A DNA stretch of 64,000 nt. Source: Mobula hypostoma. Lineage: Eukaryota. The notes beneath the pieces are model-generated. The model saw only the letters and a list, made by a program, of their open reading frames with translations, was not told the DNA's origin and ran no database searches. The stretch lies in the NCBI RefSeq assembly GCF_963921235.1, contig NC_086108.1, positions 84,694,001-84,758,000 of the forward strand, given 5' to 3'. Made by a program: the position numbers and the translations under genes. Of the stretch, positions 1,904 through 59,336 are shown in pieces; position 1 is the stretch's first letter; each line of letters starts with the position of its first letter.

Positions 1904-2107
1904 AGCAACGCACATCAAAGTTGCTGGTGAACGCAGCAGGCCAGGCAGCATCTGTAGGAAGAGGTGCAGTTGACGAAGGGTCTCGGCCTGAAACGTCGAC
2001 TGCACCTTTTCCTACATATGCTGCCTGGCCTGCTGCGTTCACCAGCAACTTTGATGTGTGTTGCTTGAATTTCCAGCATCTGCAGAATTCCTGTTGTTTG
2101 CGTTTTA
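1904..2107 (+). mobile_element. Fold-back Penelope-like (pLTR-derived) insertion with hammerhead motif at the loop
   Basis: ~65 bp inverted arms around TGACGAAGGGTCTCGGCCTGAAACGTC; 13 bp TSD AGTTCTTGAGAAT at 1891-1903 and 2108-2120. Confidence 0.8.
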
Positions 2108-8749: not shown

Positions 8750-8925
8750 TTGTCGCTGTTAGCTATTTTTCGGAATTCCCGCACAGTGATTGGCTTCTTC
8801 TGAATATTGTACTGTGTGAAGAGGCCTGACTGGCCTGTTACCACCTGTTGAATAGGTGATGGAATTACCAGATCATCAATGTCGTCATAGCTACTACAAG
8901 GCTTCCATTCTTTTGGTGGGACAAC
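8750..8925 (-). CDS. KDM4A: KDM4A second coding exon (176 nt)
   Basis: [58 protein letters not shown](K); aacAG acceptor, GTaag donor. Confidence 0.95.
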
Positions 8926-9364
8926 CTGTTAGGAATATGAATAATTAGCAGAGAAAATTCACAGCTCTTAGCTTCACGATGTTTGAAATATTAAAGTACA
9001 TCCTGGTTTTGTGCAGTAAACTGGGTCATGAGCTACAAGATGCTGACTTTACCCAAGTGTTTAAAGTCACTACTATATATATTTATATCCAAATAAACGT
9101 AGGCATAGCTTGTTGAAAGATCAGCCGCAAGCTATAATTTGCTCTACAGAAATCAATGCAGGACTCTAAACCCAATTTCATTAAAGCACATTTACATGAA
9201 TATAGATCTTGTAAATATCCTCACTTCTTTTTGAGACCTCTGTCAGAGTTGACCATGAATATTGCCTCCAAGCTGTCTAGATATGCAAGCCTGGGCAGTA
9301 TGATATAGTGAGCAAACTGTTACCATGTAAGCAAGCTCCCCCTCTCCATGCATCTCATGAACAT

Positions 9365-12100
9365 TAAGACAATAAGACCGTAAGACAAAGGAGCAGAAGT
9401 CGACCATTCAGCCCATCAAGTCTGCTCCGCCAGTTTATCATGAGCTGATCCATTCTCCCAGTTAGTCCCACTCCCCCGCCTTCTCACCATAACCTTTGAT
9501 GACCTGGCTACTCAGATACATATCAATCTCTGCCTTAAATACACCCAATGACTTGACCTCCACTGCCGCCCGTGGCAACAAATTCCACAAATTCACCAGC
9601 CTCTGGCTAAAAAAATTTCTTCGCACTTCTATTCTGAATGGGCACCCTTCAATCCTTAAGTCATGCCCTCTCGTACTAGACTCCCCCATCATGGGAAACA
9701 ACTTTGCCACATCCACTCTGTCCATGCCTTTGAACATTCGAAATGTTTCTATGAGGTCTCCCCTCATTCTTCTAAACTCCAAGGAATACAGTCCAAGAGC
9801 GGACAAACATTCCTCATATGTTAACCCTCTCATTCCTGGAATCGTTCCAGTGAATCTTCTCTGTACCCTCTCCAACGTCAGCACATCCTTCTTAAATAAG
9901 GAGACCAAAACTGCCCACAGTACTCCAAGTGAGATCTTACCAGCGCCTTATAGAGCCTCAACATCACATCCCTGCTCCTGTACTCTATTCCTCTAGAAAT
10001 GAATGCCAACATTGCATTCGCTTTCTTCACCACCGACTCAACCTGGAGGTTAACCTTAAGGGTATCCTGTACGAGGACTCCCAAGTCCCGTTGCATCTCA
10101 GAACTTTGAATTCTCTCCCTATTTAAATAATAGCCTGGTCGTTTATTTCTTCTGCCAAACACTTTCCAACATTGTATTTCATTTGCCACTTCTTTGCCCA
10201 TTCTTCCAATCTATCCAAGTCTCTCTGCAGACTCTCTGATTCCTCAGCACTACCGGCCCCTCCACCTATCTTCGTATCGTCAGCAAACTTAGCCACAAAG
10301 CCATCTGTTCCATAATCCAAATCATTGATGTACAATGTAAAAAGAAGCGGCCCCAATATTGACCCCTGTGGAACACCACTGGTAACCGGCAGCCAACCAG
10401 AATAGGATCCCTTTATTCCCACTCTCTGTTTCCTGCCAATCAGCCAACGCTCTATCCACGTATGTAACTTTCCCGTAGTTCCATGGGCTCTTATCTTGTT
10501 AAGTAGCCTCATGTGTGGCACCTTGTCAAAGGCCTTCTGAAAATCCAAATATACAACATCCACTGCATCTCCTTTGTCTAGCCTACTTGTAATTTCCTCA
10601 AAAAATTGTAAAAGGTTTGTCAGGCAGGATTTTCCTTTAAGAAATCCATGCTGAGTTCTGCCTATCTTGTCATATGCCTCCAGGTACTCTGTAACCTCAT
10701 CCTTGACAATTGACTCCAACAACTTCCCAACCACCGATGTCAAGCTAACAGGTCTATAATTTCCTTATTGCTTCCTCGCCCCCTTCTTAAATAGCAGAGT
10801 GACATTTGCAATCTTCCAGTCCTCCGGAACCATACCAGGATCTATCGACTTTTGAAAGGTCATCGCTAATGCCTCCGCAATCTCCACAGCTACTTCCTTC
10901 AGAACACAAGAGTGCATTCCATCTGGTCCGGGAGATCTATCTGCCTTTAGACTATTCAGCTTCCTGAGCACTTCCTCTGTCGTACTTGTGACTGCGCACA
11001 CTTCTTTTCCCTGCCACCCTTGAGTGTCCGGTATACTGCTGTCTTCCTCAGTGAAGACTGATGCAAAATACTCATTCAGTTCCTCCGCCATCTCCTTATC
11101 TCCCATTACGATTTCTCCAGCATCATTTTCTATCAGTCCTATCTCTACTCTCACCTGTCTTTTACTCTTTACATACTTGAAAAAGCTTTTAGTATCCTCT
11201 CTATTATTTGCTAGCTTCCTTTCATAGTTCATCTTTTCCCTCTTAATGACCTACTTAGTTTCCTTTTGTAAGCTTTTAAAAACTTCCTAATCCTCTGTCT
11301 TCCCACTAATTTTTGCTTCCTTGTATGCCCTCTCCTTTGCTTTAACTTTGGCTTTGACTTCTCGTCAGACCGGTTGCAGCCTTTTTCCATTTGAAAATCT
11401 CTTTTTTGGAATATACCTGTCTTGCACCTTCCTCACTTCTCACATAAACTCCAGCCACTGCTGCTCTGCTGTCCTTCCCGCCAGTGTCCCTTTCCAGTCA
11501 ACTTTGGCCAGTTCCTCTCTCATGCCAATGTAATTTCCTTTACTTCACTGAAATACCGACACATCAGATTTCCGCTTCTCTTTTTCTAATTTCACAGTGA
11601 ACTCAATCATGTTATGATCACTGCCTCCTAAGGGTTCCTTCACCTCAATCTCTCTAATCACCTCCGGTTCATTACACAATCCCCTAGTGGGCTCAACAAC
11701 AAGCTGTTCTAAAAAGCCACCTTGCAGACATTCTACAAATTCTCTCTCGAGATTCAGTGCCGACCTGATTTTCCCAATCCACTCGCATGTTAAAATCCTC
11801 CACAATTATCATAACACTGCCCTTCTGACAAGCCTTTTCTATTTCCTGTTGTAATTTATAGTCCACATCACTGCAGCTGTTTGGAGGCCTATAAATAACT
11901 GCCATCAGGGTCCTTTTACCCCTGCGATTTTTTAGCTCAACCCATAAAGTTTCTGCATCTTCCGATCCTATATCACCTCTTTCTAATGATTTAATATCAT
12001 TTCTTACCAATAAAGCCATGCTTCCCCCTCTGCCTACCTTCCTATCCTTCCGATACACCGTGTATCCTTGGACGTTCAGCTCCCAGAGACATGCATCCTT
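9365..12100 (-). mobile_element. CR1/L3 LINE, endonuclease plus RT, frameshifted
   Basis: EN motifs VYRKDR, IYRPP, SDHNMI; RT motifs YLDFQKAFDKVPH, GVPQGSILGP, KFADDTK; (TAAGAC) tail. Confidence 0.9.
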
Positions 12101-12368
12101 ATGTGTGGGTATCGCCGCAAGGCAGTGGAGGTTTAAGATTAGAATTTTCCTTCTCCTAGATGAGCTGTCAACCATGGCTGATAAGCCCTAACTGCTTAAA
12201 GTGACCGGTCTTAAGGCACCAGTAACCCGCCTTTGCCCCATCTGTCAGTAGGAATGGCAGTCAGGTTTAGTAGCTAAGCCGCACATGAAGGCAAGGAGCT
12301 GGACTTGACTGTCAGAGGATATTTGAGGCACACGCCATTGCGAGCATCTAATAGGTGGTGGGAGTTTA
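12100..12368 (-). mobile_element. Dispersed repeat, probable RTE-type 5' leader fragment
   Basis: Reverse-complement homolog of 30700-30940; the family assignment is inference. Confidence 0.45.
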
Positions 12369-13388
12369 CTATAACAACCTTAAGTTAAAATATATCAAGC
12401 ACTAAGCACAGTTAACTTTTAAGTATCCAAAAGTCTCAATAAGGCACATTTATATTATTTTATCAATATATTTCAATATCAATTCACTAACCTCCCAAAA
12501 TTCACTCTTCACAATGCTACATGGAATAAAATGCAATCATTTGGATCCTTCAAAAATTTAATATCACAATTTGCTCCTAACTCACTTCAAAGCTGACATG
12601 TTTAATTGTTGTTTGTGAGATTTGAGTACCAGTCTTCATTAGCCAACAGCCTTTGAGACTTGTCATGCAAACTAAGGTGGTTAAGAGCTCTCAAGGGAAA
12701 CTATATCACAATAGAACACTTTTACTCTTTTTGAAATATCGTTTACTGAGCTCGTCACATTTTTCATCTGGGTCTCTGTAACACCCATTAAGGGAACAAT
12801 AGCCTAGAAAAAAAGCTCTGAGTTGCAATTGTAGTAAGTTGCCTGTTCAGGTTAAGTTGAATGAAACTAGAGCTCTCTATATATTTGTCAGTGCTGCCAC
12901 AGTGATACTGCAGGAGGCTCAACATTCCCAAGCTGCAGGGAAGGGGTGGAGGAGGAAGTGAAGAATCATTAGCATTAGTTTGTGATGAAAATCCAATAAT
13001 ACTTTGTTCAAGTGCCTTGTGTAAACTCATGACTTAAAAGTTAACATTCCCTTCATTAAAAAGCTAACAAACTTCTTTTTGGTGCAGCACCAACAACCTG
13101 TCCCTGAATGTGAACAAAAGAGATGGTTGTTGACTTCAGGAGAGCATGGAGCGACCACTCTCCGCTGAACATTGACGACTCCTCCGTTGAGATCGTTAAG
13201 AGCACCAAATTTCTTGGTGTTCACATGGTGGAGAATCTCACCTGGTCCCTCAACACCAGCTCCATAGCCAAGAAAGCCCAGCAGTGTTTCTACTTTCTCC
13301 AAAGGCTGAGTAAAGTCCATCCCCCAACCCCCATCCTCACCACATTCTACAGAGGATGTATTGAGAGCATTCTGAGCAGCTGCATCAC

Positions 13389-13638
13389 ACATCAAAGTTG
13401 CTGGTGAATGCAGCAGGCCAGTCAGCATCTCTAGGAAGAGGTACAGTCGACATTTCGGGCCGAGACCCTTCGTCAGGACTAACTGAAAGAAGGGCTAGTA
13501 AGAGATACCTATCGAAGGGTCTCCGTCCCAAACGTCCACTGTACCTCTTCCTAGAGATGCTGCCTGGCCTGCTGCGTTCACCAGCAACTTTGATGTGTGT
13601 TGCTTGAATTTCCGGCATCTGCAGAATTCCTCGTGTTT
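13389..13638 (+). mobile_element. Fold-back Penelope-like insertion
   Basis: Inverted arms of ~80 bp; TSD GCAGCTGCATCAC at 13376-13388 and 13639-13651; the paralogous Rex1 copy near 20130 shows the single-copy empty site. Confidence 0.85.
13444..13481 (-). ncRNA. Minimal type-I hammerhead ribozyme motif (Penelope-like)
   Basis: Minus strand reads UAGUC-CUGACGA-A-GGG(UCUCGG)CCC-GAAA-U-GUC-GACUG: stem I UAGUC/GACUG, core CUGANGA...GAAA, stem II GGG/CCC, GUC cleavage triplet. Confidence 0.7.
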
Positions 13639-14812
13639 GCAGCTGCATCACTGCCTGGTTTGGGAATTGCACCATCTCGGATCACAAGACCCTGCAGCTG
13701 ATAGTGAGGTCAGCTGAGAAGATCATTGGGGTCTCTCTTCCCACCATTACAGACATTTACACCACATGCTGCACCCGCAAAGCTACCAGTATTGTGAAGG
13801 ACCTCACGCACCTTTCACACAAACTCTTCTCCCTCCTGCCATCGGGCAAAAGGTACCGAAGCATTCGGGCTCTCACAACCAGACTGTGCAACAGTTTCTT
13901 CCCCCAAGCCATCAGACTCCTCAAAACTCAGAGTCTAGACTGACATTCACATCATTTATTATTATATTGTAATTTGTCCTCTACTGTGCCTATTGTCTTG
14001 TTTATTAATTACTGTACTGCCCTGCATTGTTTTGTGCACTTTATGTAGTCCTGATCAGGTCTGTAGTCTAGTGCAGTTTTTATGTCGTTCTACATAGTCT
14101 AGTGTAGCCTTGTACTGTCTCACATAGTCCAGTGTAGTTTTGTGTTATTTCATGTCGCATCGGGGTCCTGGAGGAACTTCGTTTCGTTTTTACTGTGTAC
14201 TGTACCAGCAGCTTATGGTCAAAATGACAATAAACTTGACTTGACTTGAACAAAAGGCCAAATAGATGACTCCAGATAAGGTCACTATATATCATAAGAC
14301 TATCAAGTTCACTTTCACAATTGCTCAAGATGGTGGAAGTCTACTTTCTGAATTCATAGACTCTGTGAAGGTACTGTTGTGCCGTTATGTTACAAGTTAC
14401 AGGATTTTGTCCAGTAGACAAAGAGATGATAGTAAATTTCCAAGTCAGAATGGATTGTGATCTTGAAGGAAACTTGCAATTCCTGGCTTTCACACCCACT
14501 GCTATCCCATTCTCTGAGGTGGTACAGATCTCAGCTTAATAAGGAGAGCTCTACAAAGCATCAGTCACATGAGGTATGCCACACTCTTGCTGTACTACTG
14601 GCAGTGAATCCTTAGGGTAGTGGACAAGACATCAATCAAACAAGCTGCTTTATCTGGGGACATTCTTCTTGAGTACTGTAGATGTAGCCATGCAGGAGTG
14701 CATTTCATCAGTGACATTTACCTCTCTGACAGTAAAATGCCTAGTGTATGATGTGCCAAAGATCTCATGCAAAATACTCAACCTCTGATTAATTTCCTTA
14801 AGCCACAATATT

Positions 14813-17800
14813 TTTTTATATAATTTTTATTGAGCTTTCAAAAAGAATACATGAAAAGATAAAATCTACCCACCCCCCCCTCCCCCCCCATATATATATA
14901 GTCCTACCGAAAAGAAAGAAAGAGAAAAAAAAAGAAGAGCCGCCTGGGTATTGGAAGGTTTCCACATGCTCCATGGGATTCAAAATAAATTTGGTATAAT
15001 TATTCGTTATTTTCCCCAAGTAACCAAATTCTTTGTCGGAGCACTTAAATATGACATCCTATCTTTTGTAAATAAGGGCGCCAAATATTCAAGAATGTTA
15101 GATAATTATCTCTTAAATTATAAGTAATTTTTTCAAGTGGAATAGAACTAGCCATTTCATTATTCCAACGATCCATACTTAAATACGAATCAGATTTCCA
15201 AGTAACTGCTACAGTCTTCTTAGCTACTGCCAATGCAATTTTTATAAATTCTTTCTGATATTTATTCAATTTAAGTTTCGGTTTTATCCCTTCAATATCA
15301 CCTAATAGAAATAATACAGGGTTATGTGGAAGTTGAATTCCAGTAATTTGTTCCAATAAGACTCTTAAATTTATCCAAAAGGGTTGAATTTTAAAACAAG
15401 ACCAAGTAGAATGTAAAAAAGTACCAATTTCTTGATTACACCGAAAACATTTATCAGATAGATTTGAATTTAATCTAGCAACATACATCAAAGTTGCTGG
15501 TGAACGCAGCAGGCCAAGCAGCATCTATAGGAAGAGGCGCAGTTGATGTTTTAATCTATTTATTTTTTGTGGTGTAATATATAATTGGTGTAAAAAATTA
15601 TATTGTACTAATCTAAGTCGAACATTTATTGTATTTGTCATACTGTCCAAAGTCTTGACCAATTTATTTCATCAATATTAATATTCAGATCTGTTTCCCA
15701 TTTTTGCTTTGACTTATGGGTTCCTTGTTTAATTGTCTGTTCTTGAATCAAATTATACATACAAGAAATAAATTTTTTAATTTTCCCTTTTTGAATTAAA
15801 ATTTCAATTTCATTAGCTTTTGGCAAAAACATTGTTTGACCCAGCTTACCTATTAAGTAAGCCCTTAACTGAAAGTAGCAAAAGAAAGTATTATTAGATA
15901 TTTTATATTTATCCTTTAATTGTTCAAATGACATCAATATACCTCGCTCAAAACAATCTCCTATAAATTTAATCCCTTTTTGGTACCAATTATATAAAAG
16001 TTGATTGTCCATTGTAAAAGGAATAAGTCTGTTTTGAAACAAAGGTCTCCTTGCTAATAGAGATTTCTGTGTTTCCTTATCAACATTTATCTTATTCCAT
16101 AGATCAATCAAGTGTGTTAACATAGGAGATTCTTTCTTTTCCCGTATCCATTTAGATTCCCATTTATATATAAAATCTTCAGGTTTATTTTCTCCTATCT
16201 TGTCTAATTCATAAGTTTTATGTCTATGGGAATAGAACGAATAGTCTCTTTCTTTAGGATTGATTCTTCTCCATATATCAATCAAATTTAAATCTTTCAT
16301 CAATGATAAAGTTAGATTTACTACCTTCGATTTTATAACAGCCTTGGTTGATCTATCTAAGACTGGGTCTAAGCAAAAATTGAAGTCGCCTCCAATTAAT
16401 ATTTTTTCATGTGCATCCACCAAATTCAAAAAAGTTTCTTGTATGAATTTTGCATCATTTTCATTTGGTGCATAAATATTCATAAAAGTCCATAGTTCGG
16501 AAAAAAGTTGACAATGTATAATCACATATCTCCCCGCAGAATCAGTTATTACATTTTGTATCCTAATTGGTAACGTTTTATTGATCAAAATTGCTACTCC
16601 CCTCGCTTTTGAATTAAATGAGGCTGCAACAACATTACCCACCCAATCTCTCTTTAGTTTCTGATGTTCTGTTTCTGTTAGGTGCGTTTCCTGTAAAAAA
16701 GCTAAATCTATCTTCATTTTTTTAATATATGTTAAGATTCTTTTTCTTTTCACTGGTCCATTAAGCCCATTAACATTAAAACTCAAAAATTCCAATAAAT
16801 TAGTCATTATTCTTAACAAAGTTACTCCAATCTAAAACATTACTTATCTTCTCAACTCTCATAGTTCCTTGGGGAATCACTTTAAACTTCACCATGACGC
16901 TATGTGTCCCCCCACCCCCCAACCTTCCAGGCAAAAAGAAAAAAAAATAGAAAAAAAAAGAAAAAACAAAATACCCCCCCACTAATGTTGTGAATGAAAA
17001 GATACACAACACTACCCCCCTCCATTTTATGGGTCGCGGAAAAAGCCACGCTTGCACACATGATTAACGTAGCAATCGATCAGTGCTTCTTCCAGCTCCC
17101 CCGCAACAAAAAAAGTTTTATATATATATATATATAAAAACAAAATTAGTATTATTATTCCCAGCTAATTTCCTCCAGTATTAACCTTTCTTACCCCCCT
17201 CATATAATTAATACTATATTTATACTTTCATCCAGCTTCAAAAATCCAACAAATCCATTCTTAAACCCAATCTTCATCTTCATTCTATCTCGCTCTCCTG
17301 AGTTTGTTCGTATCTGGTGAATATTCAGAGAATCTTGCACAAACTGCTCTGCTTTCTGGTAGTCATCAAAAAATCTTTTTTCTCCACCAGACAAAAAAAT
17401 CTTCAAAGTTGCAGGATAACGCAGTATAAATTGATAACCATGCTCCCATAGGGTTTTTTTCACTGGATTAAACTTCTTCCTTTTCTTCAAAAGTTCGTAA
17501 CTTATATCAGGGTAGAAAAAAAACTCTTTTCCCTTTAATTATCAATGGCCCTTTTCTATCTTTGGCAGCTCGAACAGCCGCCTGTAGAATCCTTTCCTTG
17601 TCTTGAAATCTTAAGAATTTTATTAAAATCGATCGTGGATATTGGTCATCTTTTGGTTTTGGTCTTAAAGCTCTATGTGCCCGCTCAATTTCAATTGATC
17701 GAGCCTCCTCTCCCATTTGCAAAACCTCCGGGATCCATCTTTGAAAAAATTCTATTGGCTTTTCTTCTTCCATACCTTCTGTAAGACCAACAATTTTTAT

Positions 17801-18473
17801 ATTATTACGTCTACTGAAATTTTCCAACGTCCACTTTCTCCAAGAGTCGGTTTCTTTCCGAGTTCCAGACAAGCAAATCATTTTCTGTTTTTTCCACTCT
17901 ATCATTCATAAGCCCCATTTCTCTTTCCATCTTCTGAAGCTTCTTTTCCATTTTGTCCTGTCTTTCCATAACTTTATTATAGCATCTCTTTGTGTCTCTA
18001 AGCTCTTCTCTTACTTTCCTTAATTCAGCCGTTGATTGCAATACAGCCTCTCTTATGTTTCTATCATCTCCTTTACTTCCACTCGCTTCCAATTCTTCCT
18101 CCTCTTCTTCATCTGTGTTCTCTGCAGAATCCAGTTCTGACTCTGAGTCATTTTCAATTGCAGTGGGTGTCGGTTCTTGTAGTTTGCGCTGTGTCGCTTT
18201 GCCCATGCACAATTCCGTTGTCTTCTTCGGAGCAGCCTCTGCCACCGCCATTGCTCCCTGTTCTACCGAAGGAGATCCAACCTGAGTCCGAGGCTCCATC
18301 GCAGACTTCTTTTGTTGCGGTTTAGGAGGCATACCGTAAAGTAGTCTTACAAAGTTTATAAAGAGTTTTCAAAAAATATTTACCAACTTTGTTTTATTTA
18401 AACGGTACTTTACTGATTTGTTGCGGGAGAGCTGAATTTACACGTCTCAATCCCACGTCATCACGTGACGCCC
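14813..18473 (-). mobile_element. L1-clade LINE with intact ends, frameshifted ORF1 and an ORF2 lacking the RT
   Basis: ~17 bp TSD CCTTAAGCCACAATATT (14796-14812 / 18474-18490); A-rich tail; ORF1 RRNNIKIVGL, IERAHR; ORF2 EN SFNVNGL, FLQETH, IYAPN, GGDFN; C-terminal C..C..GTFLHSTWSC. Confidence 0.9.
15478..15549. mobile_element. Single-arm fragment of the fold-back Penelope-like element, inside L1 ORF2
   Basis: GCAACATACATCAAAGTTGCTGGTGAACGCAGC...; 9 bp TSD TTTAATCTA (15469-15477 / 15550-15558). Confidence 0.75.
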
Positions 18474-19579
18474 CCTTAAGCCACAATATTGAAGTGATTG
18501 ATCTAATTAATCTCTCATCTGTCATCAATCAACAGTTATCAGTATCTGCTGAAGGGAAAGAGAAAACTTAAGGTACTCAAAACTCACATTAATGACCTAA
18601 AGCTCACAACAAAATGATGTGACTGTTAAAAAAACTAGCTGTGTTATTATTTTGACCACATTTTTAGCTATCAAGAACATCAGTGAATGAGAAGTTTTAG
18701 GCAGATTAGCCAAAATCCCATACAGTTTTGCTCATAAACAGTTATTGCATTATAGCACCCCTTTCACTGTACGGTTTACCTAAGAGACTGCAGATGTTGA
18801 AATCTTAAGCAACAAACAAAATGCTGGAGAACTCAGTGGGTCAGGTAGCATCCATGGAGAGAAATGGATAGTTGATGTTATGGTCAAGATTGTTCACCTG
18901 CAATACTCTTGATTTTGTGTTGCTCACTGGATGGCTTACCAGATCAAAAGCTTGACAAATTTCAAGATTAGCAGTTTTGTTTTGCCTCTTTTGTTAATCA
19001 TAGAAAAATATAGAACAGGAAGTCTGTACTGCGTCCATGCAAGCCACAAATACAGTTTGCATTAATCCTTCTTGTGAGTTTTCCATTAATAACCCTGCAG
19101 ATTATAGATCAAGTGCTTATCCAAATCAAGAAGTGCAAAGAGAACTTCTGCCTCTACCCATTCAGACAGTGTGTGCTGGATCCCCAGCACCTAGAGACTT
19201 TATTTTCTCAACTTCTGTTTAGTTACCTTGCATCTACGCACCAGCCTGCCTCTACCATTATCGAAATCTCTAACTAAAGAGAGGTCAGCTGTCCACTTAA
19301 CCTGCCTAGTAATTAATCTTATATAGCTTAATTAAACTTATCAGTATCCTTTGATCCAACACCTCTTCACTATCACAGATCTCCAACTCCGATAATCTCA
19401 GATCTCCTGTCATGTCTCAAATACTATTACATCTTGTGTGTGTGGAGCAGGCTTGAAAGAGGAAAAGAAAAAAACACTATAAGCATTGAAAGTGTTCTAA
19501 AGGACAGCGAAGATTCAGGTGTGCTTTTGACAATACTTCAATCTACCAGCATTTCTAAGCATGGAAAAATTTGGGCATT

Positions 19580-20200
19580 TGAAGTTAAGTCACTTTTTAT
19601 TGTCATTTCGACCATAACTGCTAGTACAGTACACAGTAAAAACGAGACAATGTTTTTCAGGACCATGGTGCTACATGAAACAATACAAAAGCTACACCAA
19701 ACTACATAAAACAACACAAAACTACACTAGACTACAGACCTACCCAGGACTGCATAAAGTGCACAAAACAGTGCAGGCATTACAATAAATAATAAACAAG
19801 ACATTATGCACAGTAGAGGGCAGTAGGTTGGTGTCAGTCCAGGCTCTGGGTATTGAGGAGTCTGATGGCTTGGGGGAAGAAACTGTTACATAGTCTGGTC
19901 GTGAGAGCCCGAATACTTTGGTGCCTTTTGCCAGATGGCGGGAGGGACAAGAGTTTGTATGAGGGGTGCGTGGGGTCCTTCCTTCATAATTCTGTTTGCT
20001 TTACGGATGCAGCGTGTGGTGTAAATGTCTCTAATGGCGGGAAGAGAGACCCCGATGATCTTCTCAGCTGACCTCACTATCTGATGCAGGGACTTGCGAT
20101 CTGAGATGGTGCAATTTCCGAACCAGGCAGTGATGCAGCTGCTCAGGATGCTCTCAATACAACCTCTATAGAATGTGGTGAAGATGGGGGGTGAGGATGG
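19580..20200 (-). mobile_element. Rex1/Babar LINE 3' fragment
   Basis: FYRGCIESILSSCITAWFGNC; high identity to 13640-14249 in inverted orientation. Confidence 0.85.
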
Positions 20201-20564
20201 TGAGGAACCTTGCTTATTATTAGTGAATATTCCCCTTTCAATGGGAAATTGTGTTTTTATTCCCAAGTTGCACTTTGAAACTTCTGTCCAAACTCAATTT
20301 TACTTGCTGAATTAACCCAGAATATACAGTAATCTCACTGAAATCCCCAAAGCCAAGGTAGATCTGTGCAATTTTAGTGAAGCACCCAAACAAAATTCCA
20401 CATGAACTACTGCAGCCTGTATTTCCCCTGAAATATTACTCTATTCATTGAACCACGTGATACAAGAGTAACCTCAAAAGAGAACTCTAGCATATTTCTA
20501 CAATGAAATGGATATTTTGATTGCTGACAAAGTAAAATTTTTAAATCAGTATTCTCTAATAGAA

Positions 20565-23290
20565 AGAATCAGATTTATTATCACTGGCATGTGACGTGAA
20601 ATTTATTAACGTAGCAGCAGTAGATCAATGCAATACATAACCTAGCAGAGAATAACTAAATAATAATAAACAAGTAAACCAATTACATATATTGAATAGA
20701 TTACAAAATGTGCAAAAACACTAAAAAAAAATGAGGTAGTATCTAAAGATTTAATGACCATTTAGGAATTGGATGGCAGAAGGGAAGAAGCTGTTCTTGA
20801 ATTGCTGAGTGTGTGCCTTAAGGCTTTTGTACCTCCTACCTGATGGTAACAGTGAGAAAAGGGTGCTGGAGGTTCTTAATAATGGACACTGCCTTCCTGA
20901 GACACTGCTCCCTAAAGATGTCCAGGGTGCTTTGTGGGCTAGTTCCCAAGATAGAGCTGACCAGATTTATAACCTTCTGCAGTTTTTTTGGTCCTGTGCA
21001 GTAGCACCCGCCCCCCCCATACCAGACACTGACGCAGCATGTCAGAATGCTCTCCATGGTACAAGAGAAGTTTTTGAGTGTATTTGTTGACATGCCAAAT
21101 CTCTTTAAACTCCTAATGAAGTATAGCCGCTGTCTTGCCTTCTTTATAACTACATTGAAATGTTGGGACCAGGTTAGATCCTCAGAGATCTTGACACCCA
21201 GGAACTTGAAGCTGCTCACTTTCTCCACTTCTGATCCCTCTATGAGGATTGGTATGTGCTCCTTCCGTCTTTCCCTTCCCGAAGTCCACAATCAGCTCTT
21301 TTGTCTTACTGACGTTGAGTGCCAGGTTGTTGCTGTGGCTCCACTCCAATAGTTGGCATATCTCACTCCTGTACGCCCTCTCGTCACTACCTGAGATTCT
21401 ACCAACAATGGTTGTATCGTCAGCAAATTTATAGATGGTATTTGAGCTATGCCTAGCCACACAGTAATGTATATATAGAGAATAGAGCAGTGGGCTAAGC
21501 ACACACCCCTGAGGTGCGCCAGTGTTGGTAGTCAGTGAGGATCCAATTGCAGAGGGAGGTACAGAGGCCCAGGTTCTGCAACTTCTTAATCAGGATTGCG
21601 GGAATGATGGTATTAAATGCTGAGCTATAGTCGATGAACAGCATCCTGACATAGGTGTTTGTGTTGTCCAGGTAATCTAAAGCTGTGTGGAGAACCACTG
21701 AAATTGGGTCTGCTGTTAATCTATGTGGCGATAGGCAAATTGCAATGGGTCCAGGTCCTTGCTGAGGCAGGAGCTCAGTCTAGTCATAACCAACCTCTCA
21801 AAGCATTTCATCACTTTGATGTGAGTGCTACTGGGTGATAGTCATTAAGGCAGCCCACATTATTCTTCTTGGGCACTGGTATAATTGTTGCCGTTTTGAA
21901 GCAAGTGGGAACTTCCACCTGTAGCAGTGAGAAGCTGAAAATGTCCTTGACTACTCTTGCTAGTTGGTTGGCACAGGTTTTCAGAGCCTTACCAGGTACT
22001 CCCTCGGGACTTTCAGCCTTGTGAGGGTTCACTCTCTATAAAGACAGCCTATCATCAGCCTCTGAGACGGAGATCACAGGGTCATCAGGTGCAGCAGGGA
22101 TCTTCATAGCTGTAGTTGTGTTTTCCCTTTCAAAGCCTACATAGAAGGTGTTGAGTTCATCTGGTAGTGAAACATCACTATCATTCATGCTATTACGTTT
22201 CACTTTGTAGGAAGTAATGTCTTGCAGACCCTGCCAGAGTTGCCATGTACCGATGTTGCCTCCGCAAATCATACCTGCTTTTCTGGTACAGGCCTGGGTT
22301 GCCAGACTTGAATGGCACAGATCTGGCCTTCACCAGAAGACGCACCTCATGGTTCATCCACTGCATTTGATTTGGAAAGTACAATAAGTCTTTGTGGGCA
22401 CTCACACATCCACACAGGTTTTAATGAAGTCGGTAACAACTGCAGCATACTTATTCAGGCTCGAAGATGAATCCCTGAATACAGTCCAGTCCACCGATTC
22501 AAAGCAGTCCTGTAGACACTCTTGTTCTCCCCTTGTCCATACCTTCTGGATCCTCACTGCTGGTGCTGCAGTCTTCAGTCTCTGCCTATACTCAGGGAGA
22601 GGAGTACAGCCATGTGATCAGACTTTCCAAAGTGAGGGCACAGTAGGCATTCTTGACGGTGGTGTAGCAATGGTTTAGTGTCTTGTTTCCTCTGGTATTG
22701 CAAGGATGACACTTTACTGCTGGATGTTCCAGTTCTGGTGAGCAGAATTGGGACAGCAGTGATATATTTGTGCACCAAAAGGAGTTGACCATGAGGCACA
22801 CTCCTACACCTCTGCTTTTGAGAGACTCCAGAGATCTATCCTGATGGTGTATAGTAAACCCGTCCATCTGGATCGCTGCAACCAGTATGGAAGGGGTTAA
22901 CCAGAATTCCGTGAAACAAAGGACACACCTAGTCTTAACGTCCCTCTGATTCAGCACCCTGGCTCTGAGATCATTGATTTTATTCACCAGAGACTGCACA
23001 TTCACCAGCAAGATAGTTGGTATAGGGAGATTAAAACTCCGTTTCCTTAAATGCACTTGTAATCCTGATCTACACCCACCCTTCCTCCAAGGTGTCCTCC
23101 GTGAGCTCTTCCGACCACAACTGGTGTCGTTTCCGTTGGTTTTAAGCAGTGATAGTTCATTAAATGCATTAAGACATCTTTGTTGACTATACTGACCTTG
23201 GAAGCAGTTGTGCTTTTTAGCTGTATCAGACAGAAACTGGAATATTTAACCGTATCCAATGAGAGTTCTGTTGCTACTCGAGGCGTGCCT
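20565..23290 (-). mobile_element. Rex1/Babar LINE, long decayed copy (EN plus RT fragments)
   Basis: [48 protein letters not shown]. Confidence 0.85.
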
Positions 23291-23449
23291 AGGCATCCCC
23301 GAAGTAAAAAGTTGTTGAAATGTGGAAAAAAAAATGATGCTTTGAAAACAAAATAGTTTTAAGGCACCAACATTTTCATTTAGACCTGGTTCTGTACAAC
23401 ATTATATTTGCAGATTTGTTATTTTAAATTGAAAAAGGATCTTGTACTT

Positions 23450-24640
23450 TCTCGGCAAATGTCAGGCTCCTTTTCATTGACTACAGCTCTGCCTTTAATA
23501 CCATCATTCCAAATAAACTGATTCTTAAGCTCCGGAACCTGGGCCTTAGCACTCAGATCTGCAGCTGGATCTTCAACTTCCTCACAGACAGGACCCAGGC
23601 TGTAAAAATAGGGGACAAGCTCTCCTCTACAATCACTCTGAGCACCGGTGCCCCACAAGGCTGTGTACTCAGCCCCCTGCTGTACTCACTGTACACCCAT
23701 GATTGTGCAGCCAAGTTTCCATCAAACTTAATATGTAAGTTTGCTGACGACACCACAATTGTAGGCTGTATCTCGGGTAATGATGAGTTTGAGTACAGAG
23801 AGGAAATTAAGAACCTGGTGGCATGGTGCGAAGACAATAACCTATCCCTCAACATCAGCAAGACAAAGGAATTGGTTGTTGACTTCAGAAGGAGTAGCGG
23901 ACCACATGACCCCATTTACATCGGTGGTGCGCAAGTGGAACAGGTCAAAAGCTTTAAGTTCCTCGGGGTCAATATCACAAATGACCTGACTTGGTCCAAC
24001 CAAGCAGAGTCCACTGCCATGAAGGCCCACCAGCGCCTTTACTTCCTGAGAAAACTAAACAAATTTGGCCTGTCCCCTAAAACCCTCACTAATTTTTATA
24101 GATGCACCGTAGAAAGCATTCTTCTAGGGTGCATCACAACCTGGTATGGAAGTTGTCCTGTCCAAGACCAAAAGAAGCTGCAGTAGATCGTGAACACAGC
24201 CCAGCACATCACACAAACCAATCTTCCATCCTTGGACTCACTTTACACCGCATGCTGTCGGAGCAGAGCTGCCAGGATAATCAAGGACACGACCCACCCA
24301 GCCAACACACTGTTCATCCCTCTTCCCTCTGGGAGAAGGCTCAGGAGCTTGAAGACTCATACGGCCAGATTTGGGAGCACCTTCTTTCCAACTGTGATAA
24401 GACTACTGAACGGATCCTGACCCGGATCTGGGCCATACCCTCCAAATATCCGGACCTGCCTCTCGTTTTTTTTTGCACTACATTACTTCCCCTTTTCTAT
24501 TTTCCATTTATGATTTATAATTTAAATTTTTACTATATTTACTATTGATTTGTACTCCAGGGAGCACGAAGCACAGAATCAAATATCGCTGTGATGATTG
24601 TATGCTCTAGTATCAATTGTTTGGCAACAATAAAATATAT
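23450..24640 (+). mobile_element. Rex1/Babar LINE 3' fragment
   Basis: [37 protein letters not shown]. Confidence 0.85.
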
Positions 24641-24648
24641 GAAAAATA

Positions 24649-24895
24649 AACTTTTCTCGGGCTTCCAGCCGGGTACAAGCATCGATTTTAACCGACATTT
24701 TTATGACAAAGTCTACCATCTTCATCAGGGATGTTGCCTAGGCATGTCCAGTCCAGTGATATCTACTGGTGGGATATGGGGGTGGTGGGGGGGTTTATAT
24801 ACCACCAAACTAGACATGCTTTGGTATCATCCTTGATGAAGATGGCAGATGGTTACAACTGATAGCTGTACCCGGCTGGAAGCTCCAGAAGAGTT
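24649..24895. mobile_element. Second fold-back family, Penelope-like, with hammerhead remnants in both arms
   Basis: Arms CTCGGGCTTCCAGCCGGGTACA / TGTACCCGGCTGGAAGCTCCAG and CCATCTTCATCAGGGATG / CATCCTTGATGAAGATGG. Confidence 0.65.
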
Positions 24896-25120
24896 GATCT
24901 ATTCTTAAAAATTACTTATCAGCAAATTGGAGAATGTTGCCTGCAAAAAGCAAATTGTATGCAAAGCAATTTCAGATCAGCTGACTGCCTTATGCAAGAA
25001 ACAATCTGTATATAGTGTCACAAGCACTACTCCAATATAATCTATCCCAAACTTGGAAATGTAGAATATTATTCCTTGAAAAAGTAAAACAACCATAATT
25101 ATGCATATTTCTCAGATTAC

Positions 25121-25258
25121 CTTTGCAAGTCCAGCGCGATGAGCACCTTGCGTTTCTATATACGCTATGTAACGGCTGAAGTTTTGGAATTCTTCCATTG
25201 TGGGATAAAAAGTCATTATCCGAGAATTGGGATTGGGCATTCCTGATTCTGATGCCAT
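25121..25258 (-). CDS. KDM4A: KDM4A first coding exon (JmjN); the exon extends to 25277 with 19 nt of 5'UTR
   Basis: [46 protein letters not shown]; the MASES start is KDM4A-type; ttgtAG acceptor at 25278-25279, GTaatc donor. Confidence 0.95.
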
Positions 25259-25679
25259 GTTTGCCAACTTCAATGATCTACAAATAAAAGTTCGGGAAAT
25301 TGATACTTTGCAAGCAATTTACATAATATTTTCAACGACCAATAACAGCTGATGCTAAAGCAAGTTCAAACTACTGCTACCATTCCACCACTGCCACTTA
25401 GCGTTTCCAGAGAGGACAATAGCACTTAAGATGCTGCACCTCCAAAATACACAACTTATCTTAATTCCGGTATCTAAATGTAAACGATAGCCAAACGTAA
25501 GTATGATGTTCAATATTTGCAGCAGCACTGCAAAATTAATTAAATACTGGTGGTTGAATTACAGCTCACTCCAGGTGGCAGCCATTAATAAGAGTCAACA
25601 CACAATTCAAGAAGTTAAATTAACAATAATAGTGAATGAATAGACTTCAGGGACTGGGACACAAGTGCATTTATTACGC

Positions 25680-26480
25680 CGCCAATAGTACGGTCGGGCG
25701 ATACTGTCAAAACTTGAATTGACCTGTGCAAAGACAGGCGCAATAATAATAATATAAGCTCTCTGCAGCAACATCGGCGGCCTTGGAGCGCTGGAGACAA
25801 GTTCCGAATCCGTGACCGGATACATTCAGTGTCAACAAAGGGCGAGAGCGGACCCCGCACTCATCGCCCGGCGGGTGATCGACCTCACCTCACCCGTCCG
25901 CCGCCCTTCAGCAGCGGGTGACAATGAGGGAGATAGGGGGGCTCGGCCTGTCCTTTTGTCTGCTGCAGGCGTCCTCCCGATCACGCCTTTCATTTTCACT
26001 TTCGGCCCGGCATCACACGCCCACTCCCCTCAGCCCCGAGGTGGGCGAACGTACCGCGACTCCGGCAACCGGACCTGCGCCACCTGGGGCGCTGCTCTTT
26101 AACCCGCTTTGTGGCCGCGGCACGGGGGGTGGGGTAAGCGGAGCGGACGGGCCCGCGGAGGGGGGAGGGGCGAAGACCAGGCCCGTACGCGGCCCTCCTC
26201 CTATTGTTAGAAGCTGTCACCTCCCGCCGCGCCGCGGCGACGGCTCCAGCACGGGGTCCTGATCCCGAGCACGGCCGAGTCCCAGGCCTCTCCCGCGGGC
26301 CCCGCTCTACCGAGCAGCAGCGAGCGGCCCACGGCTTTTTTTTTCTGCCGTCCCCCGATGGTACTTCGCGTCAAACAAACCTCCACACCGCTGTCCTCCC
26401 ACCCCTTCCTTCCGTAGCGTCGGCCCTGGTTGGGGCCCAGCGACACCCTGACCAAAACACACTGCTAGCGGAGCAGGGCG
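25680..26480 (-). promoter_or_regulatory. CpG island, probably containing the KDM4A TSS and non-coding exon 1
   Basis: Sharp rise in GC and CpG in an otherwise CpG-depleted window; GC-box-like GGGGGAGGGGCG; candidate minus-strand donors near 25885-25893; exon limits not determinable. Confidence 0.8.
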
Positions 26481-27260
26481 ATTGGTTAATGCTCCTGTCA
26501 GTCACGCCATTGCTAAGCAAGTTGCGATGCCTCAAGTTACGACTACCGGAAATTATTATTTTTGGGTAAAATGGACATCATCGAGGTTTAAAGTAAAAGC
26601 AGAAAGTTCTTTGATGTATGAGCCAAACAAACTTACGTCTGGGATACAGAGTGTTCCGGACCACCACGGTTTTCTCCTGTCTTTTTTTGCTAAACCCCCT
26701 TTAAAATTTCGACTATCCCTTTCCCTAAACAAGACTACACAATCAACCAATCAACACAAACGTTCCGATCAACACCATAGATTACAAAGTTCACCAATCA
26801 GCTTCGTTAGCCAATGAGCACAGCGACTCCCAATAGAAACTGACCAACAGTGTGCTTCTTTTCCCCTACGTCTGCCAAGATCTAACCAATCAACACACCT
26901 CGGCTTCCAGCCATTCGGAGCCAGTTATCGATATAGTCAGACAATGCCCGTTTGAAACTGGGAAATCAGATGCTTCACGAGCTCCATGATACCCTAAAGC
27001 CACCAGACTGTCCAATCTCAAAAAAAATGAACGAGTAACTAACATCACTTTGCTTTCATCAACCGACCAATAGACATAGGGGCAGTGCGCAGTCGGCCAA
27101 TCTGCAGCTGCATGTCTGGGCCAACCAGGAGAGTCGCGATTTCGCGTCCGTCCAATCGGCATGCAGAGTGCGGCTTCCATTGGTCGCGTGCAAGTCTGCA
27201 CATCCACCGCCTCGTGACCTCCCGGGAGAAGAGCGGGCAGGGCGCAGTTAACTGCGAGGA
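26481..27260. promoter_or_regulatory. CCAAT-box (NF-Y) cluster, KDM4A upstream promoter
   Basis: CCAAT/ATTGG at 26481, 26747, 26794, 26811, 26830, 26886, 27012, 27067, 27097, 27152 and 27179; second CpG-rich patch 27080-27260. Confidence 0.7.
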
Positions 27261-27394
27261 AGGGAAGCTTGTACATCTGACAGTCGAGGCAAAGATCATC
27301 GGGCTAAATGTATTTGCCTTTTTGTTGTCCATTTGTATGCCCGTCATCCTCAATAGCATAAAGCCAGAAAACTACTGCACAGAAATAGGTCTTT

Positions 27395-27760
27395 CGAACC
27401 ATTGAAACTGACTACCGGCATCGGGACCTTAACCCTCTATACTCCTATCATCCAAGTACCAATCGTCTTTTAAATGTTGAAATCGAGCTGGCATGCACTA
27501 CTTCCACACTTACACGACCCCTCACGTTCCCCTTAAACTTTCACCCTTTATCGTTGACCTCGGGAAAGCCTGCTTGCATTTACTGTAACTATACCCCTCA
27601 TAATTTTGTATTCCTCTATCAAATCCAAGAAATAAAGTTGTAACCTATTCAATCTTTTCACTTAACTCAGGTCCTCCAGACTTGGCAGCATCCTTGTAAA
27701 TTTTTCAACTTTATTTACTTCGTTCCCATAGATAGGTGACCAAAATTGCACACATCTTTG
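27395..27760 (-). mobile_element. Old CR1 3' fragment
   Basis: Degenerate CR1 3' sequence (...GGTGACCAAAATTGCACAC); boundaries approximate. Confidence 0.5.
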
Positions 27761-29821
27761 TACAGTGCTTGCATTGCACCTTTAGCACCAGTATGCTTTT
27801 AACAGCAGTGATTTTTTTAAATCCTGATGCACCACTATCTGACGTTTTTGGAAGACCCCATAGTTGTGCATCTAGCTGACCAAACAGTTTGCAGTTTCCA
27901 CTCTCCTGGGCCCAGTTCCAATGCCCCTTTTAAACTCGTTGCTTTTGTTGGTAACCATCCCCTGACATCTTCCTGTTTGTTTTCTGTGTGTCTTTTAAAC
28001 TTGCTGGATTCACTGGAGTTTTACTATGTAATATAAAGTGAATTACAAGCAAGTCAAAGCGCTTAACTGATAATCCAACACCATTAAAATCTCAGACATA
28101 TTGAATTAACAGTTTTTATAAATTAACAACATGACAACATGTCTTTATTAGTGTCTCACACAAATGACAATGGTTCAGAAGCCCATTGAGGATGGTGGAG
28201 GTCTTAGATCAGGTTTTTTTCTAAATCAGCTGGGAGGATTGAAGTCCGGTTCATATTAGAAGAGAAATTCAATGGATGATGGCTGGTCAGCAGAAATCAT
28301 CTGTCAATGGACAAAAAATTGGATGATGTTAGTCATAGAACAATGCCTTTTGGCTGATTCCATCTGGCTTGGTATGTTGATTAGGATTGGTGGGCAGAGT
28401 GATGAAACCCAAGCTCGTTGAGACTGCGTTTCAACATTCAGAATCAAATCACATGTACATTGAAACGTGCAGTGAAATGCGTCGTTTGTGTGAATAACCA
28501 ACACACCTCGGGATGTGCGGGGAGCAGCCTGCGGATACTGCCACACATTCCAGCTCCAAAATAGCATACAAGGAAAAATCTGAAGACGCTGTAAATCCGA
28601 GCAACACACAGAAAATGCTGGAGGAACTCAGCAGGCCAGGGAGCATGCCCACAGTGCTCGACAGAATAACAGGACTAAACAAGCCCCTTACCTCTCCCAC
28701 CTACACATGTGGAGAGTCTTCCAACTCCCACTATAGATACTGCCTGACCTGCTGTGTTGCTCTGGCATTTTGTGTGCCTTATTTGGGCCTCGATTCTCAG
28801 CACCAACCCATAGATGAGCTGACGGCAGGATTCCAAAGTTTTTCCGCTCCTCCTCACACGGACATCCACCTCCCTGGGACAGCTGTAGTGCAGGCCTGGG
28901 TGTCCATCAACTATCACGAAAAGGAGGCCTGACCTCTAATCCCTGTTCCTAAACATTATTCTGACTTCGAACTCTCGACATCGTTGTCCCTAAACCTTAA
29001 ACAACCCACCCATCCCCAAAACTTAAACAAAAACTAAGTCTGAACCACTGAAATCTCAACACAGTAACTAGAGCCAAATCTATAGTAGTAGTGGAATGGG
29101 ATGGTGTGAAGCACAGGTTGGGGAGTTACAGGGTGCCATGCAAGTCAAAAGCAACAATGGTTTCTTTGAAGCCATGTTCTTTATCCCTTTGTCAGCTTTT
29201 CACAAGAGTTAGTTATCTGTGGTGATTTTTATTCAGGTACTCTACGAGGTGTAAACGCACCTCATCCAACTACAGTACTATGCATTTGAATGCCAAGTTT
29301 TTAAGTTATTAACAGGTGCTCACCTTAAAGATTTGTGTACTTACACTCCAGGTCTGCTTATGCTTACAATTTAAATTTAAATTGTAGCACTTAGTTTATC
29401 TTTGCAAATTCCTTAGCAAAAAGTTTCTATTACCTTGGGTTAAATTTCACTTGCTGCATCTTTCCACGTTTCTCTGTTTTGTATCTTCTCAAGAGAAAGC
29501 TGGAAGAAGGAAAAGGTCAAACAGAGAAGATCAGAAAAGATTGAAGCAGAAGGTAACAGAGGCACATAGGGTCACCTGGTTAGTAAAATACAATTGATTG
29601 AAACAGAGTTGCACAATGAGGTAAATTCCTGACCACATTCGTACAATTTCATTCAGGCTTCTAATTTTTTTTATATATACCTCTGAGCTGTTGCTGCCTA
29701 AGATCATTTGCTAATGAACCTCTCAGGGAGCCATACAGCACAAAGTCTTTAAGTACGCCCTTCGGCCTACAGTCTGCATGAATAAAGGAGCATGCATTTA
29801 CACTTATCCCAATTATAATAT

Positions 29822-30011
29822 CGCAAACAGGAGGAAATCTGCAGAAGCTGGAAATTCAAACAACACACACAAAATGCTGGTAGAACGCAGCAGGCCAGGC
29901 AGTATCTATAGGAAGAGGTACAGTCGACGTCTCGGCCTGAAACGTTGACTGTACCTCTTCCTATAGATGCTGCCTGGCCTGCTGCGTTCCACCAGCATTT
30001 TGTGTGTGTTG
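29822..30011 (-). mobile_element. Fold-back Penelope-like insertion
   Basis: ~70 bp near-perfect inverted arms around ...GTCTCGGCCTGAAAC...; 14 bp TSD CCCAATTA(T/C)AATAT (29808-29821 / 30012-30025). Confidence 0.85.
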
Positions 30012-30039
30012 CCCAATTACAATATATCTACATTCCCAT

Positions 30040-34358: not shown

Positions 34359-34449
34359 AAAAACACAAACACGAGGACATCGACAACTCTTCCGACAGAT
34401 GCTGCCTGGCCTGCTGCGTTCACCAGCATTTTTTTAAATGTGTGTTGTA
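34359..34449. mobile_element. Truncated fold-back Penelope-like insertion next to an older copy
   Basis: GATGCTGCCTGGCCTGCTGCGTTCACCAGCA arm; 11 bp TSD ATGAACA(A/G)TTT (34348-34358 / 34450-34460). Confidence 0.65.
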
Positions 34450-50516: not shown

Positions 50517-50642
50517 AAAAACGAGGAAATCTGCAGATGCTGGATTTTCAAGCAACACACATAAAAGTTGCTGGTGAACGCAGCAGGCCAGGCAGCATCT
50601 CTAGGAACAGGTACAGTCGACGTTTTGGGCCGAGAGTGTTGC
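50517..50642 (-). mobile_element. Fold-back Penelope-like insertion with a 7-nt second arm
   Basis: 13 bp TSD ATTTAATATTTTG (50504-50516 / 50643-50655); ends GTGTTGC. Confidence 0.8.
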
Positions 50643-56591: not shown

Positions 56592-57996
56592 TACAGCTAT
56601 AATTTTAGCACAGTCAACATTTTTATGGCCTTGAAATAGCGTTTTACCTATTCAAGGCAGTTAAGTATAAAATGAAGGATTTCAGGTACTGAATTAGATA
56701 GGAGAAATTGTGTTTGGTTTTCTAGGGGGACTAAAAGAAAGGTCATGTTAAATCAAGACAATTCTAAATAGTGTAAATAGAAGGCATTTGTTTCAGTAAC
56801 AGCTGGTTCAATTTAATACTGTGGGTAGAACATTTTTTACATTAAAATTATATTTAAGGTCAGAGCTCTCTGGGTAAGTAATAGAGACAGTCAATCAGCT
56901 TCAAAAAAGGAATTGGTGGCAGAGATAATTAACTTTCACATCAATGGGGAAGGTGTGGGAAATGGGACTGATAGCATTGTTCCTACTGTCATGGACTTGA
57001 TGGACTGAATGGTTTCATTCTGGTCATAATGGTTCTATGGCCGAGGTATAGAGTAAGCAACAATTTTATTGAATGGTGTTGTAAGCCTGTATGGTCTACT
57101 GCTAATTTACTTATGTGCTTATGACGTGCACAATCATCTAGCATGAGGAAATAAGTTTTCCCAAAGATCCTATCAAAATTTATTCCTTAAGCAGAAACAT
57201 CAATAGATTTTTATTCATTTATTTCCATTTGTGCTTGATGTTGGCTACAGTAATTCCTTATTGTGTAACAGGAATTGCACTCCAAAGTGGGATTCCCTTC
57301 ATTTATTTGGGACACCATGCTGTGTAATTAGGATAGGATATTGCTACTGAACAATTTCTGACTAGTGCAGGTCACACGCATGTCAGAAACTACACCGTGC
57401 TTAGTTTTTAAGTTTTAAGTTTTAAAATAGTTTTAAAAATAGTGCCAGTTGCATGTGCCATGCCAAATTGACACAAAAAGATTTGACACTATCCGAAGGT
57501 ATTATCCTACTGGACCAAATTAAAAGCCATTTACCTAACACCACTCATCATCCGCAGGCAGAGATAACTGGAGTGCCAAAATCTACAATTGCATGCTTGA
57601 TTCATCAGCAAGATACACTTCAAGAAGAATTGGCATTACGTGACAGACAACACAGAACATTCCAAAAACGAAAGCATGAAGGTAGGGGTTCAGATATTGA
57701 AGAGGACCGCAGTCAATTGTTTTCCATTGTAACTGGATGAAGTGTGCGTGTCTGAATGTTAAAAAAAAAGTCAGAGGAGCTAGCTAAATAGCTGGTCATG
57801 AAGATTTTAACCCAATGGATGGTTGATGGAAATGGTGGCACCACATTAAGTTCAAGAAAGCGGGGGACTTCCGGGTCATCAAGGGAATGGTGGCGTAAGG
57901 AAAAGGTCTCTCGACAAAAAAGAAGGTAAACTGCCCCAAAATCGAATTTAGACAAATACTTAATATTGCATAACTATATTAATAAAAGGGGCAAGG

Positions 57997-58974: not shown

Positions 58975-59336
58975 TTAAGAGAAATGACTGAAAAGAGTAA
59001 ATCGGACTTAAACGTAAAATGAAAACTGGTAACTGAAAATAAACTAGGCGGAATAACTTGAATGATAGCAATATGGTCGAGACATAAATAGGAGAAAATT
59101 CTCTATGATTATTCAAACTGCTGAGGGCCCTCTAACACAGGCTGAAGATAGAGGTTATCCCTCTGAACTGAGGCGGGTCGGTGCTCAGGCCTCACTGTGG
59201 GAAGTCGGGAAAAATTTTCAAATGTTATACGTTCAGAAATGTCTAGGGTGTGGTTATATGTCTTGGTTTACTGTTGAGAAGGGATTGCTTACTGTTTGGT
59301 TAGAAAAGGAGAGTGCTTTTTTTCTACTAGAAAAAA

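Follow-up and report, generated by a model that had tools for sequence, protein, structure and literature searches.

A likely inert relic: a CpG-decayed minimal hammerhead on a fold-back Penelope-like stub within a KDM4A intron, where a long hairpin is predicted to lock it

Results

KDM4A and an intact-looking hammerhead core in its intron

The window, i.e., the whole 64-kb stretch of Mobula hypostoma DNA analysed here, carries coding exons of a KDM4A-like gene, hereafter KDM4A, on its minus strand: the first coding exon (25121..25258, with the ATG at 25258), located by sequence search and a JmjN profile match, and the next coding exon (8750..8925), separated by an intron of 16,195 nt (8926..25120) with GT..AG borders. 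In a PDB sequence search the 46-aa first coding exon scored higher with KDM4A (72.9 bits) than with KDM4B (59.8) or KDM4C (51.9), and it also fits KDM4A better than KDM4D. A CpG island at 25000-27500 (observed/expected 0.84-0.95) lies upstream of this exon and likely represents the KDM4A promoter together with a non-coding exon. The window further holds a long element (57964-63111, plus strand) in which fragments of ORF1 accompany an ORF2 that is open over 946 aa and, inside the KDM4A intron, a second, broken element like it (15048-18368, minus strand); judging from their translations, we take both to be L1/Tx1-like.

Read along the minus strand, positions 13481-13444 give UAGUC CUGACGA A GGG UCUCGG CCC GAAA U GUC and, beyond the predicted scissile bond between C13449 and G13448, GACUG, letter for letter as in the original prediction. 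Sequence, comparison with the core matches in the window, and folding identify 13444..13481 (minus strand) as a minimal type-I hammerhead motif with a helix I of 5 bp including one G-U, a helix II of 3-4 bp, the CUGANGA core (here CUGACGA), an extra A between 9 and 10.1, the G10.1-C11.1 pair, GAAA and a GUC cleavage site of the NUH type; every catalytic core letter is intact. Where 44/54 family copies have the palindrome ACGU, the motif has AUGU, which pairs by wobble only and is still self-complementary via tandem G-U pairs. The claim that the motif lies in sense orientation within a KDM4A intron holds, as the gene is on the minus strand and its intron runs from GT 25120 to AG 8926.

Eight CUGANGA...GAAA matches occur in the window, and inspection by eye showed that only 13444..13481 also has both helices, I and II, together with an NUH site. 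Rfam returned no match at the gathering threshold across the 64-kb window. A minimal-hammerhead descriptor had 20 matches in 800 kb of random genome and none in the same DNA reversed or complemented; likewise, exact 34-mer controls read backwards were absent from the genome. The motif is thus not a chance match.

A fold-back stub inserted into a LINE

The motif sits within a 250-bp insert (13389-13638) flanked by two identical 13-mers, the left (13376..13388) and right (13639..13651) copies of a target-site duplication on the plus strand. Sequence comparison resolves the insert into an inverted, tail-less pLTR arm that carries the motif (13389..13506, minus strand), a junction of 6 nt (13507..13512), and the direct pLTR 3′ end with the tail of a Penelope-like element (PLE) (13513..13638, plus strand). 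From a start 58 nt upstream of the cut site, the minus arm takes in the whole core and ends ∼40 nt short. The plus arm starts inside the hammerhead, where it lacks CUGA and retains a mutated remnant, and ends at the long 3′ end of the family; it is antisense to the motif and is transcribed ahead of it in the orientation of the KDM4A pre-mRNA. The two arms stand head-to-head and are 90% complementary over 96 nt, with 30 nt between them. A two-arm element had been proposed, with 13513-13600 as its inverted arm. The two arms are borne out, and their roles are the reverse: the inverted arm is the ribozyme-bearing 13389-13506, and the tail belongs to 13513-13638, the primary 3′ end. The features of an insertion unit of endonuclease-bearing (EN+) PLEs are all present, namely the inverted 5′-truncated pLTR, the tail on one arm and the target duplication; the stub contains no ORF sequence.

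The stub splits a LINE 3′ fragment (13087..14306, plus strand), recognized through other copies and PF09004; we take this LINE to be Rex1/Babar- or RTE-like. Its other copies run unbroken across the insertion site, and the window copy at 23428-24183 matches RVT_1 and PF09004. The insertion joint (13375-13639, with 13 shared letters) was found in 4/4 sequencing runs. In run X23, contig 25 (1,733 nt) matches the window over 12503-13086 and again over 14307-14800, the two stretches being separated by 53 nt; the flanks are ∼91% alike, and both the LINE and the PLE are absent from the orthologous site. This absence rests on one of four runs, as the other three break at the repeat. Insertion into the KDM4A intron was recent.

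A sister fold-back stub of the same family (1904..2099) lies in the next KDM4A intron, and neither of its arms has a whole core; its plus strand reads GAAACGTC at 1990-1997. Additional PLE stubs, from its own subfamily or from older ones, are found at 29825-30012, 28542-28776, 15474-15551, 50517-50635 and 34384-34447. The other PLE stubs of the window, 1904-2099 included, comprise several fold-back pairs, none with a whole core.

Two more cores in KDM4A sense, both with an intact ACGU and with U in place of C11.1, lie beyond the window start. One is located between KDM4A exons ∼21 kb downstream of the motif (∼8.0 kb beyond the window start); the other, ∼27 kb downstream (∼14.0 kb beyond), is probably still inside KDM4A. 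The exons outside the window were placed by motifs that we presume to be those of KDM4A.

The parent Penelope-like family

The end of a GIY-YIG ORF is followed, immediately downstream, by family copies, and the best Atlas matches to the family carry PF01541 (score 0.97). Full pLTR-ORF-pLTR units with RVT_1 are present in the genome, although RVT_1 was only weak and sub-threshold in two long ORFs. Pfam detected no family in two PLE fragments, and a PDB sequence search on the PLE gave nothing meaningful. The motif class therefore lies in the pLTR of an element with reverse transcriptase (RT) and GIY-YIG, in support of the predicted assignment to PLE-type minimal hammerheads. Four family translations (L051, L053, L063 and L064) contain the linker CKRNKCYTC, which fits the CX2-5CxxC pattern between RT and the C-terminal GIY-YIG by which PMC8557442 defines Neptune and Nematis. 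Judged by sequence, membership in the Neptune or Nematis clade is indicated by this CX4CxxC linker, which precedes an endonuclease at the C-terminus.

The genome still contains open frames of 800-935 aa. Two partial-tandem pLTR-ORF-pLTR units (L252:1-5416 and L253:996-4943) have 935-aa open frames. These ORFs stop short of the GIY-YIG frame, probably because the query sequence is frameshifted. In full units the long ORF has its first in-frame ATG ∼140 nt after the hammerhead, and the extra 35-40 nt correspond there to the beginning of the ORF-bearing region. The 3′ ends of family copies fall into two groups, at ∼+55 to +72 and at ∼+100, and these two groups define the PLE tail described in PMC8557442, PMC3846280 and PMC11167929. 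An adjacent inverted arm accompanies 38/66 and 32/43 truncated copies in two sets; inverted arms are routine in this family.

Copy number and sequence decay

In the 3.48-Gb genome we counted 6,478 exact parent 34-mers, 989 34-mers identical to 13444..13481 including its C-to-T change, and 65,433 exact tail 25-mers. Extrapolation from the 20 descriptor matches, which came from 80 random 10-kb stretches, gives ∼87,000 descriptor-positive cores genome-wide (53,000-134,000). An intact-looking hammerhead is thus expected about every 40 kb, and its lying in gene-sense orientation is no sign of function.

The proposed origin of AUGU by CpG decay of ACGU agrees with the variant counts and with a natural parent-type copy, from which the inverted arm differs at 5 of 118 nt, two of them at CpG. 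At the palindrome CpG, G-to-A changes, which break the palindrome, outnumber the wobble-keeping C-to-T changes (1,257 versus 989 copies), so no force appears to keep the dimer helix. We had considered selection for a wobble-kept palindrome and rejected it, as the breaking variant is the commoner one. At the CpG of core positions 7/8, harmless C7-to-T changes (1,021 copies) are more frequent than core-killing G8-to-A changes (652), and the non-CpG core positions show only 2 changes in 535 cells among 54 young copies; weak selection acting on source elements is one possible cause, a sequence-context bias another. A large subfamily, comprising 33/54 young copies, has U at 11.1.

The prediction would have been contradicted by a lack of covariation in helices I and II across genomic copies, and covariation was indeed no higher than in shuffled controls: 53 distinct copies contained a single double-change cell, a value reached in 470/500 shuffles, and all other helix I/II changes were one-sided. 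For this comparison 9 of the 64 aligned rows were left out beforehand (one with a large deletion, one coreless, three spanning inversion junctions and four near-duplicate young copies) and the window copy was added. Dead copies of closely related masters from one genome are a poor place to look for covariation, of which they can show little.

These data also bear on whether the motif could be a domesticated intronic ribozyme of the RECK/CTCL/DTNB kind, which the host retains so as to adjust how KDM4A RNA is processed. It would fit that the motif is intronic, in sense, and that the gene is a conserved one, and domestication of intronic hammerheads has been proposed (PMC6155905). The orthologous site, which is empty in a relative whose flanks are 91% alike, already goes most of the way to refuting this reading: conservation of the RECK type is lacking in run X23, the one informative run of four. 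Moreover, the motif is nested in a young LINE, has decayed like its 989 twins, and shows neither a helix III nor covariation above shuffles; our literature search found no paper that joins KDM4A, hammerhead ribozyme and intron. We consider domestication extremely improbable, and a host role for 13444..13481 is not supported. Nor did a special significance for KDM4A hold up, given that the motif is one of 989 identical 34-mers, that the orthologous site is empty in one relative, and that at least one further sense core lies in another KDM4A intron.

The core is predicted to be locked by the opposite arm

As an isolated 38-47-nt RNA, the motif is predicted to form helices I and II with pair probabilities of 0.90-1.0, while the isolated 47-nt fold would be no more stable than its shuffles (z -0.70). 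With both arms, the 291-nt RNA is predicted to form a hairpin of -189.2 kcal/mol (z -18.55). The calculated cost of adopting the hammerhead shape is 7.3 kcal/mol in the 78-nt context of its own arm and 33.6 kcal/mol with both arms present. All energies come from nearest-neighbour calculations at equilibrium, which take no account of protein, Mg2+ or A-to-I editing. As a prediction, the suggested sequestration of the core by the opposite arm is thus upheld by the 33.6 kcal/mol penalty and the -189.2 kcal/mol hairpin. Transcription of KDM4A proceeds towards lower coordinates, so that the antisense arm precedes the core, and in the predicted fold the nascent RNA would already be paired. Dimerization should likewise be impaired: the intermolecular 4-bp helix III is calculated at +1.2 kcal/mol for AUGU compared with -3.1 for ACGU, i.e., ∼4 kcal/mol weaker per dimer, and the double-hammerhead fold at -9.2 compared with -30.7 for the competing cofold.

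Could the stub nevertheless give rise to a low rate of cleavage in KDM4A pre-mRNA, with a family copy as its pairing partner in trans or with help from a PLE protein, the hairpin being an off-switch opened by editing or proteins? The core is intact and the isolated motif is predicted to fold helices I and II; sense cores with ACGU lie ∼21 kb and ∼27 kb downstream, the 800-935-aa ORFs survive, and a PLE protein activates the anole hammerhead in vitro (PMC11167929). Against this stand the predicted 33.6 kcal/mol penalty and the antisense arm being made first, the dimer helix weakened by AUGU, the far more stable competing cofold, and the distance of tens of kb to the partner cores. We regard such cutting as very unlikely. 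Slightly less credible still, in our view, is that any importance of the stub would lie in its being a double-stranded RNA hairpin of 90 bp, a substrate for A-to-I editing or small RNAs and not a ribozyme. The length, complementarity and close spacing of its arms and the very stable predicted fold would suit this, and small RNAs from rotifer PLE inverted repeats are mentioned in PMC3846280. Hairpins of this kind number in the thousands, which would make editing incidental and not a function.

5′ ends of short family copies avoid the cut site

If element RNAs cleaved at the hammerhead served as templates, 5′ ends could be expected to mark the cut site as a footprint. We took the first 100 exact tail copies on contig C1, of which 34 extended at least 170 nt upstream and 66 were shorter. 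In this first set, 22/66 short copies have their 5′ end 28-37 nt ahead of the cut site (p 1.6e-7 when tested for an even distribution from -57 to -8), as do 11/23 solo copies, several of which abut the target duplication. A second set of 73, several of whose copies share insertions with the first, placed 13/43 truncated copies at this front edge (p 0.014, and only 0.24 when compared with 20 nt downstream), and a random sample 3/23 (p 0.55). The front-edge peak is likely real but uneven. Only 2/66, 1/23 and 0/43 truncated copies had 5′ ends within 2 nt of the cut site, where a cleavage footprint was not seen. Avoidance of the cut site is consistent across the three sets, and short copies that start at the front edge rather than at the cut site suggest uncleaved templates. 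The stub at 13389-13638 falls outside this cluster, its ribozyme arm starting at -58.

The front-edge site combines initiator-like and 3′-splice-site-like letters with a 7-bp hairpin that overlaps helix I; its TCAGT or TTAGT resembles the presumed initiator consensus. In three parent copies, helix I is predicted at 0.81-0.95 with at most 8 nt of upstream sequence and at 0.05-0.09 with 30 nt. A branch-point-like heptamer, pyrimidines and a CAG at the site prompted us to consider spliced templates as the origin of the 5′ cluster; we rejected this, as solo copies abut target duplications and share no upstream exon. D. virilis Penelope has an initiator-type internal promoter (PMC2377424) and an intron that ends at helix I (PMC4209133).

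A tentative model, which we put forward as possible though doubtful, is that the family hammerhead is gated by where the RNA starts. Element RNAs would begin ∼30-37 nt before the cut site, over TCAGT/TTAGT, and only these would fold helices I and II; read-through RNAs, for instance from host introns, would be shut by the small upstream hairpin, and the short copies would be fossils of start-site RNAs that were copied uncleaved. If true, start gating would explain the tolerance of a vertebrate for some 10^5 intact cores and make the role of PLE hammerheads directly testable. The 5′-end statistics themselves bear on whether PLE hammerheads cut their template, a question that PMC8557442 and PMC11167929 leave open.

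Discussion

We conclude that 13444..13481, a minimal hammerhead with CpG decay, sits on the inverted arm of a PLE stub of 250 bp within a KDM4A intron and is very probably an inert relic, which a long hairpin is predicted to lock. According to this reading, a PLE ribonucleoprotein would have copied the pLTR end of its own RNA at a staggered cut inside the LINE, leaving the 13-bp duplication and the known head-to-head pair of pLTRs, one arm with a 30-40-nt tail and one without. Deamination of methyl-CpG may later have turned ACGU into AUGU. In KDM4A pre-mRNA, the antisense arm, made first, would capture the hammerhead core during its synthesis. Since a tandem partner is lacking, the dimer palindrome is weakened and a PLE protein is probably absent, cleavage should be negligible, and the intron with its stub would be spliced out as usual. 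For KDM4A, the stub is very probably without importance, a piece of repeat debris.

Our literature search found no paper joining Penelope, Neptune, shark and hammerhead ribozyme; supplements, which lie outside such a search, might name sharks or rays.

The amniote hammerheads in RECK, CTCL and DTNB (PMC6155905) are also of type I and intronic. They are conserved across amniotes, whereas 13444..13481 is lineage-restricted, repetitive and devoid of helix III. Non-LTR retrozymes (bioRxiv 10.64898/2026.07.22.740005) resemble the stub in being PLE-derived and non-coding with a type I hammerhead, and 42-44% of their copies are in introns; the same preprint reports one of nine Xenopus dimers as active and eight as uncleaved. 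Retrozymes consist of at least two tandem units with a whole hammerhead in each; in contrast, the stub at 13389-13638 is single and inverted, with one whole core and a coreless inverted partner.

In the green anole, the hammerhead of Poseidon_Ac cleaves in vitro only with the PLE protein, cleavage is dispensable for insertion, and the cut site is not where any reads terminate (Frangieh et al. 2024, PMC11167929). As in Poseidon_Ac, the hammerhead of our family lies at the pLTR-ORF junction, two 3′-end classes define the tail, and genomic copies run through the cut site. Unlike there, where the start codon is at stem II, the ATG here is ∼140 nt downstream of the cut site, and the two elements belong to different PLE clades.

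EN+ PLE units of the Neptune/Nematis type combine an inverted 5′-truncated pLTR with a 30-40-bp tail (PMC8557442, PMC3846280). Full copies of our family match them in having a single ORF with RT, a CX4CxxC linker and GIY-YIG at the C-terminus. The stub, which unlike full EN+ units has no ORF sequence, shares their head-to-head pLTR arms, the tail on one arm only and the target duplication.

The closest counterparts of the motif itself are the minimal hammerheads in the pLTRs of metazoan PLEs, whose monomers were inactive and dimers weak (Cervera and De la Pena 2014, PMC4209133), in agreement with the review PMC6765202. Helix II is shorter here (3-4 bp versus 7-8 in Schistosoma), 13444..13481 has lost the perfect palindrome, and the ∼87,000 cores are ∼10 times the 4,000 of coelacanth and 9,000 of Xenopus, counts obtained with different descriptors. 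In line with those ribozymes, the motif is of type I with a helix I of 4-5 bp, an extra base (A9/G10.1) and G10.1-C11.1, lies in a pLTR and lacks helix III; at 15.2-16.2, where its family is palindromic as they are, this copy pairs by wobble only. Like them, too, it belongs to mostly dispersed single copies of truncated PLEs, among which pairs on opposite strands have been noted.
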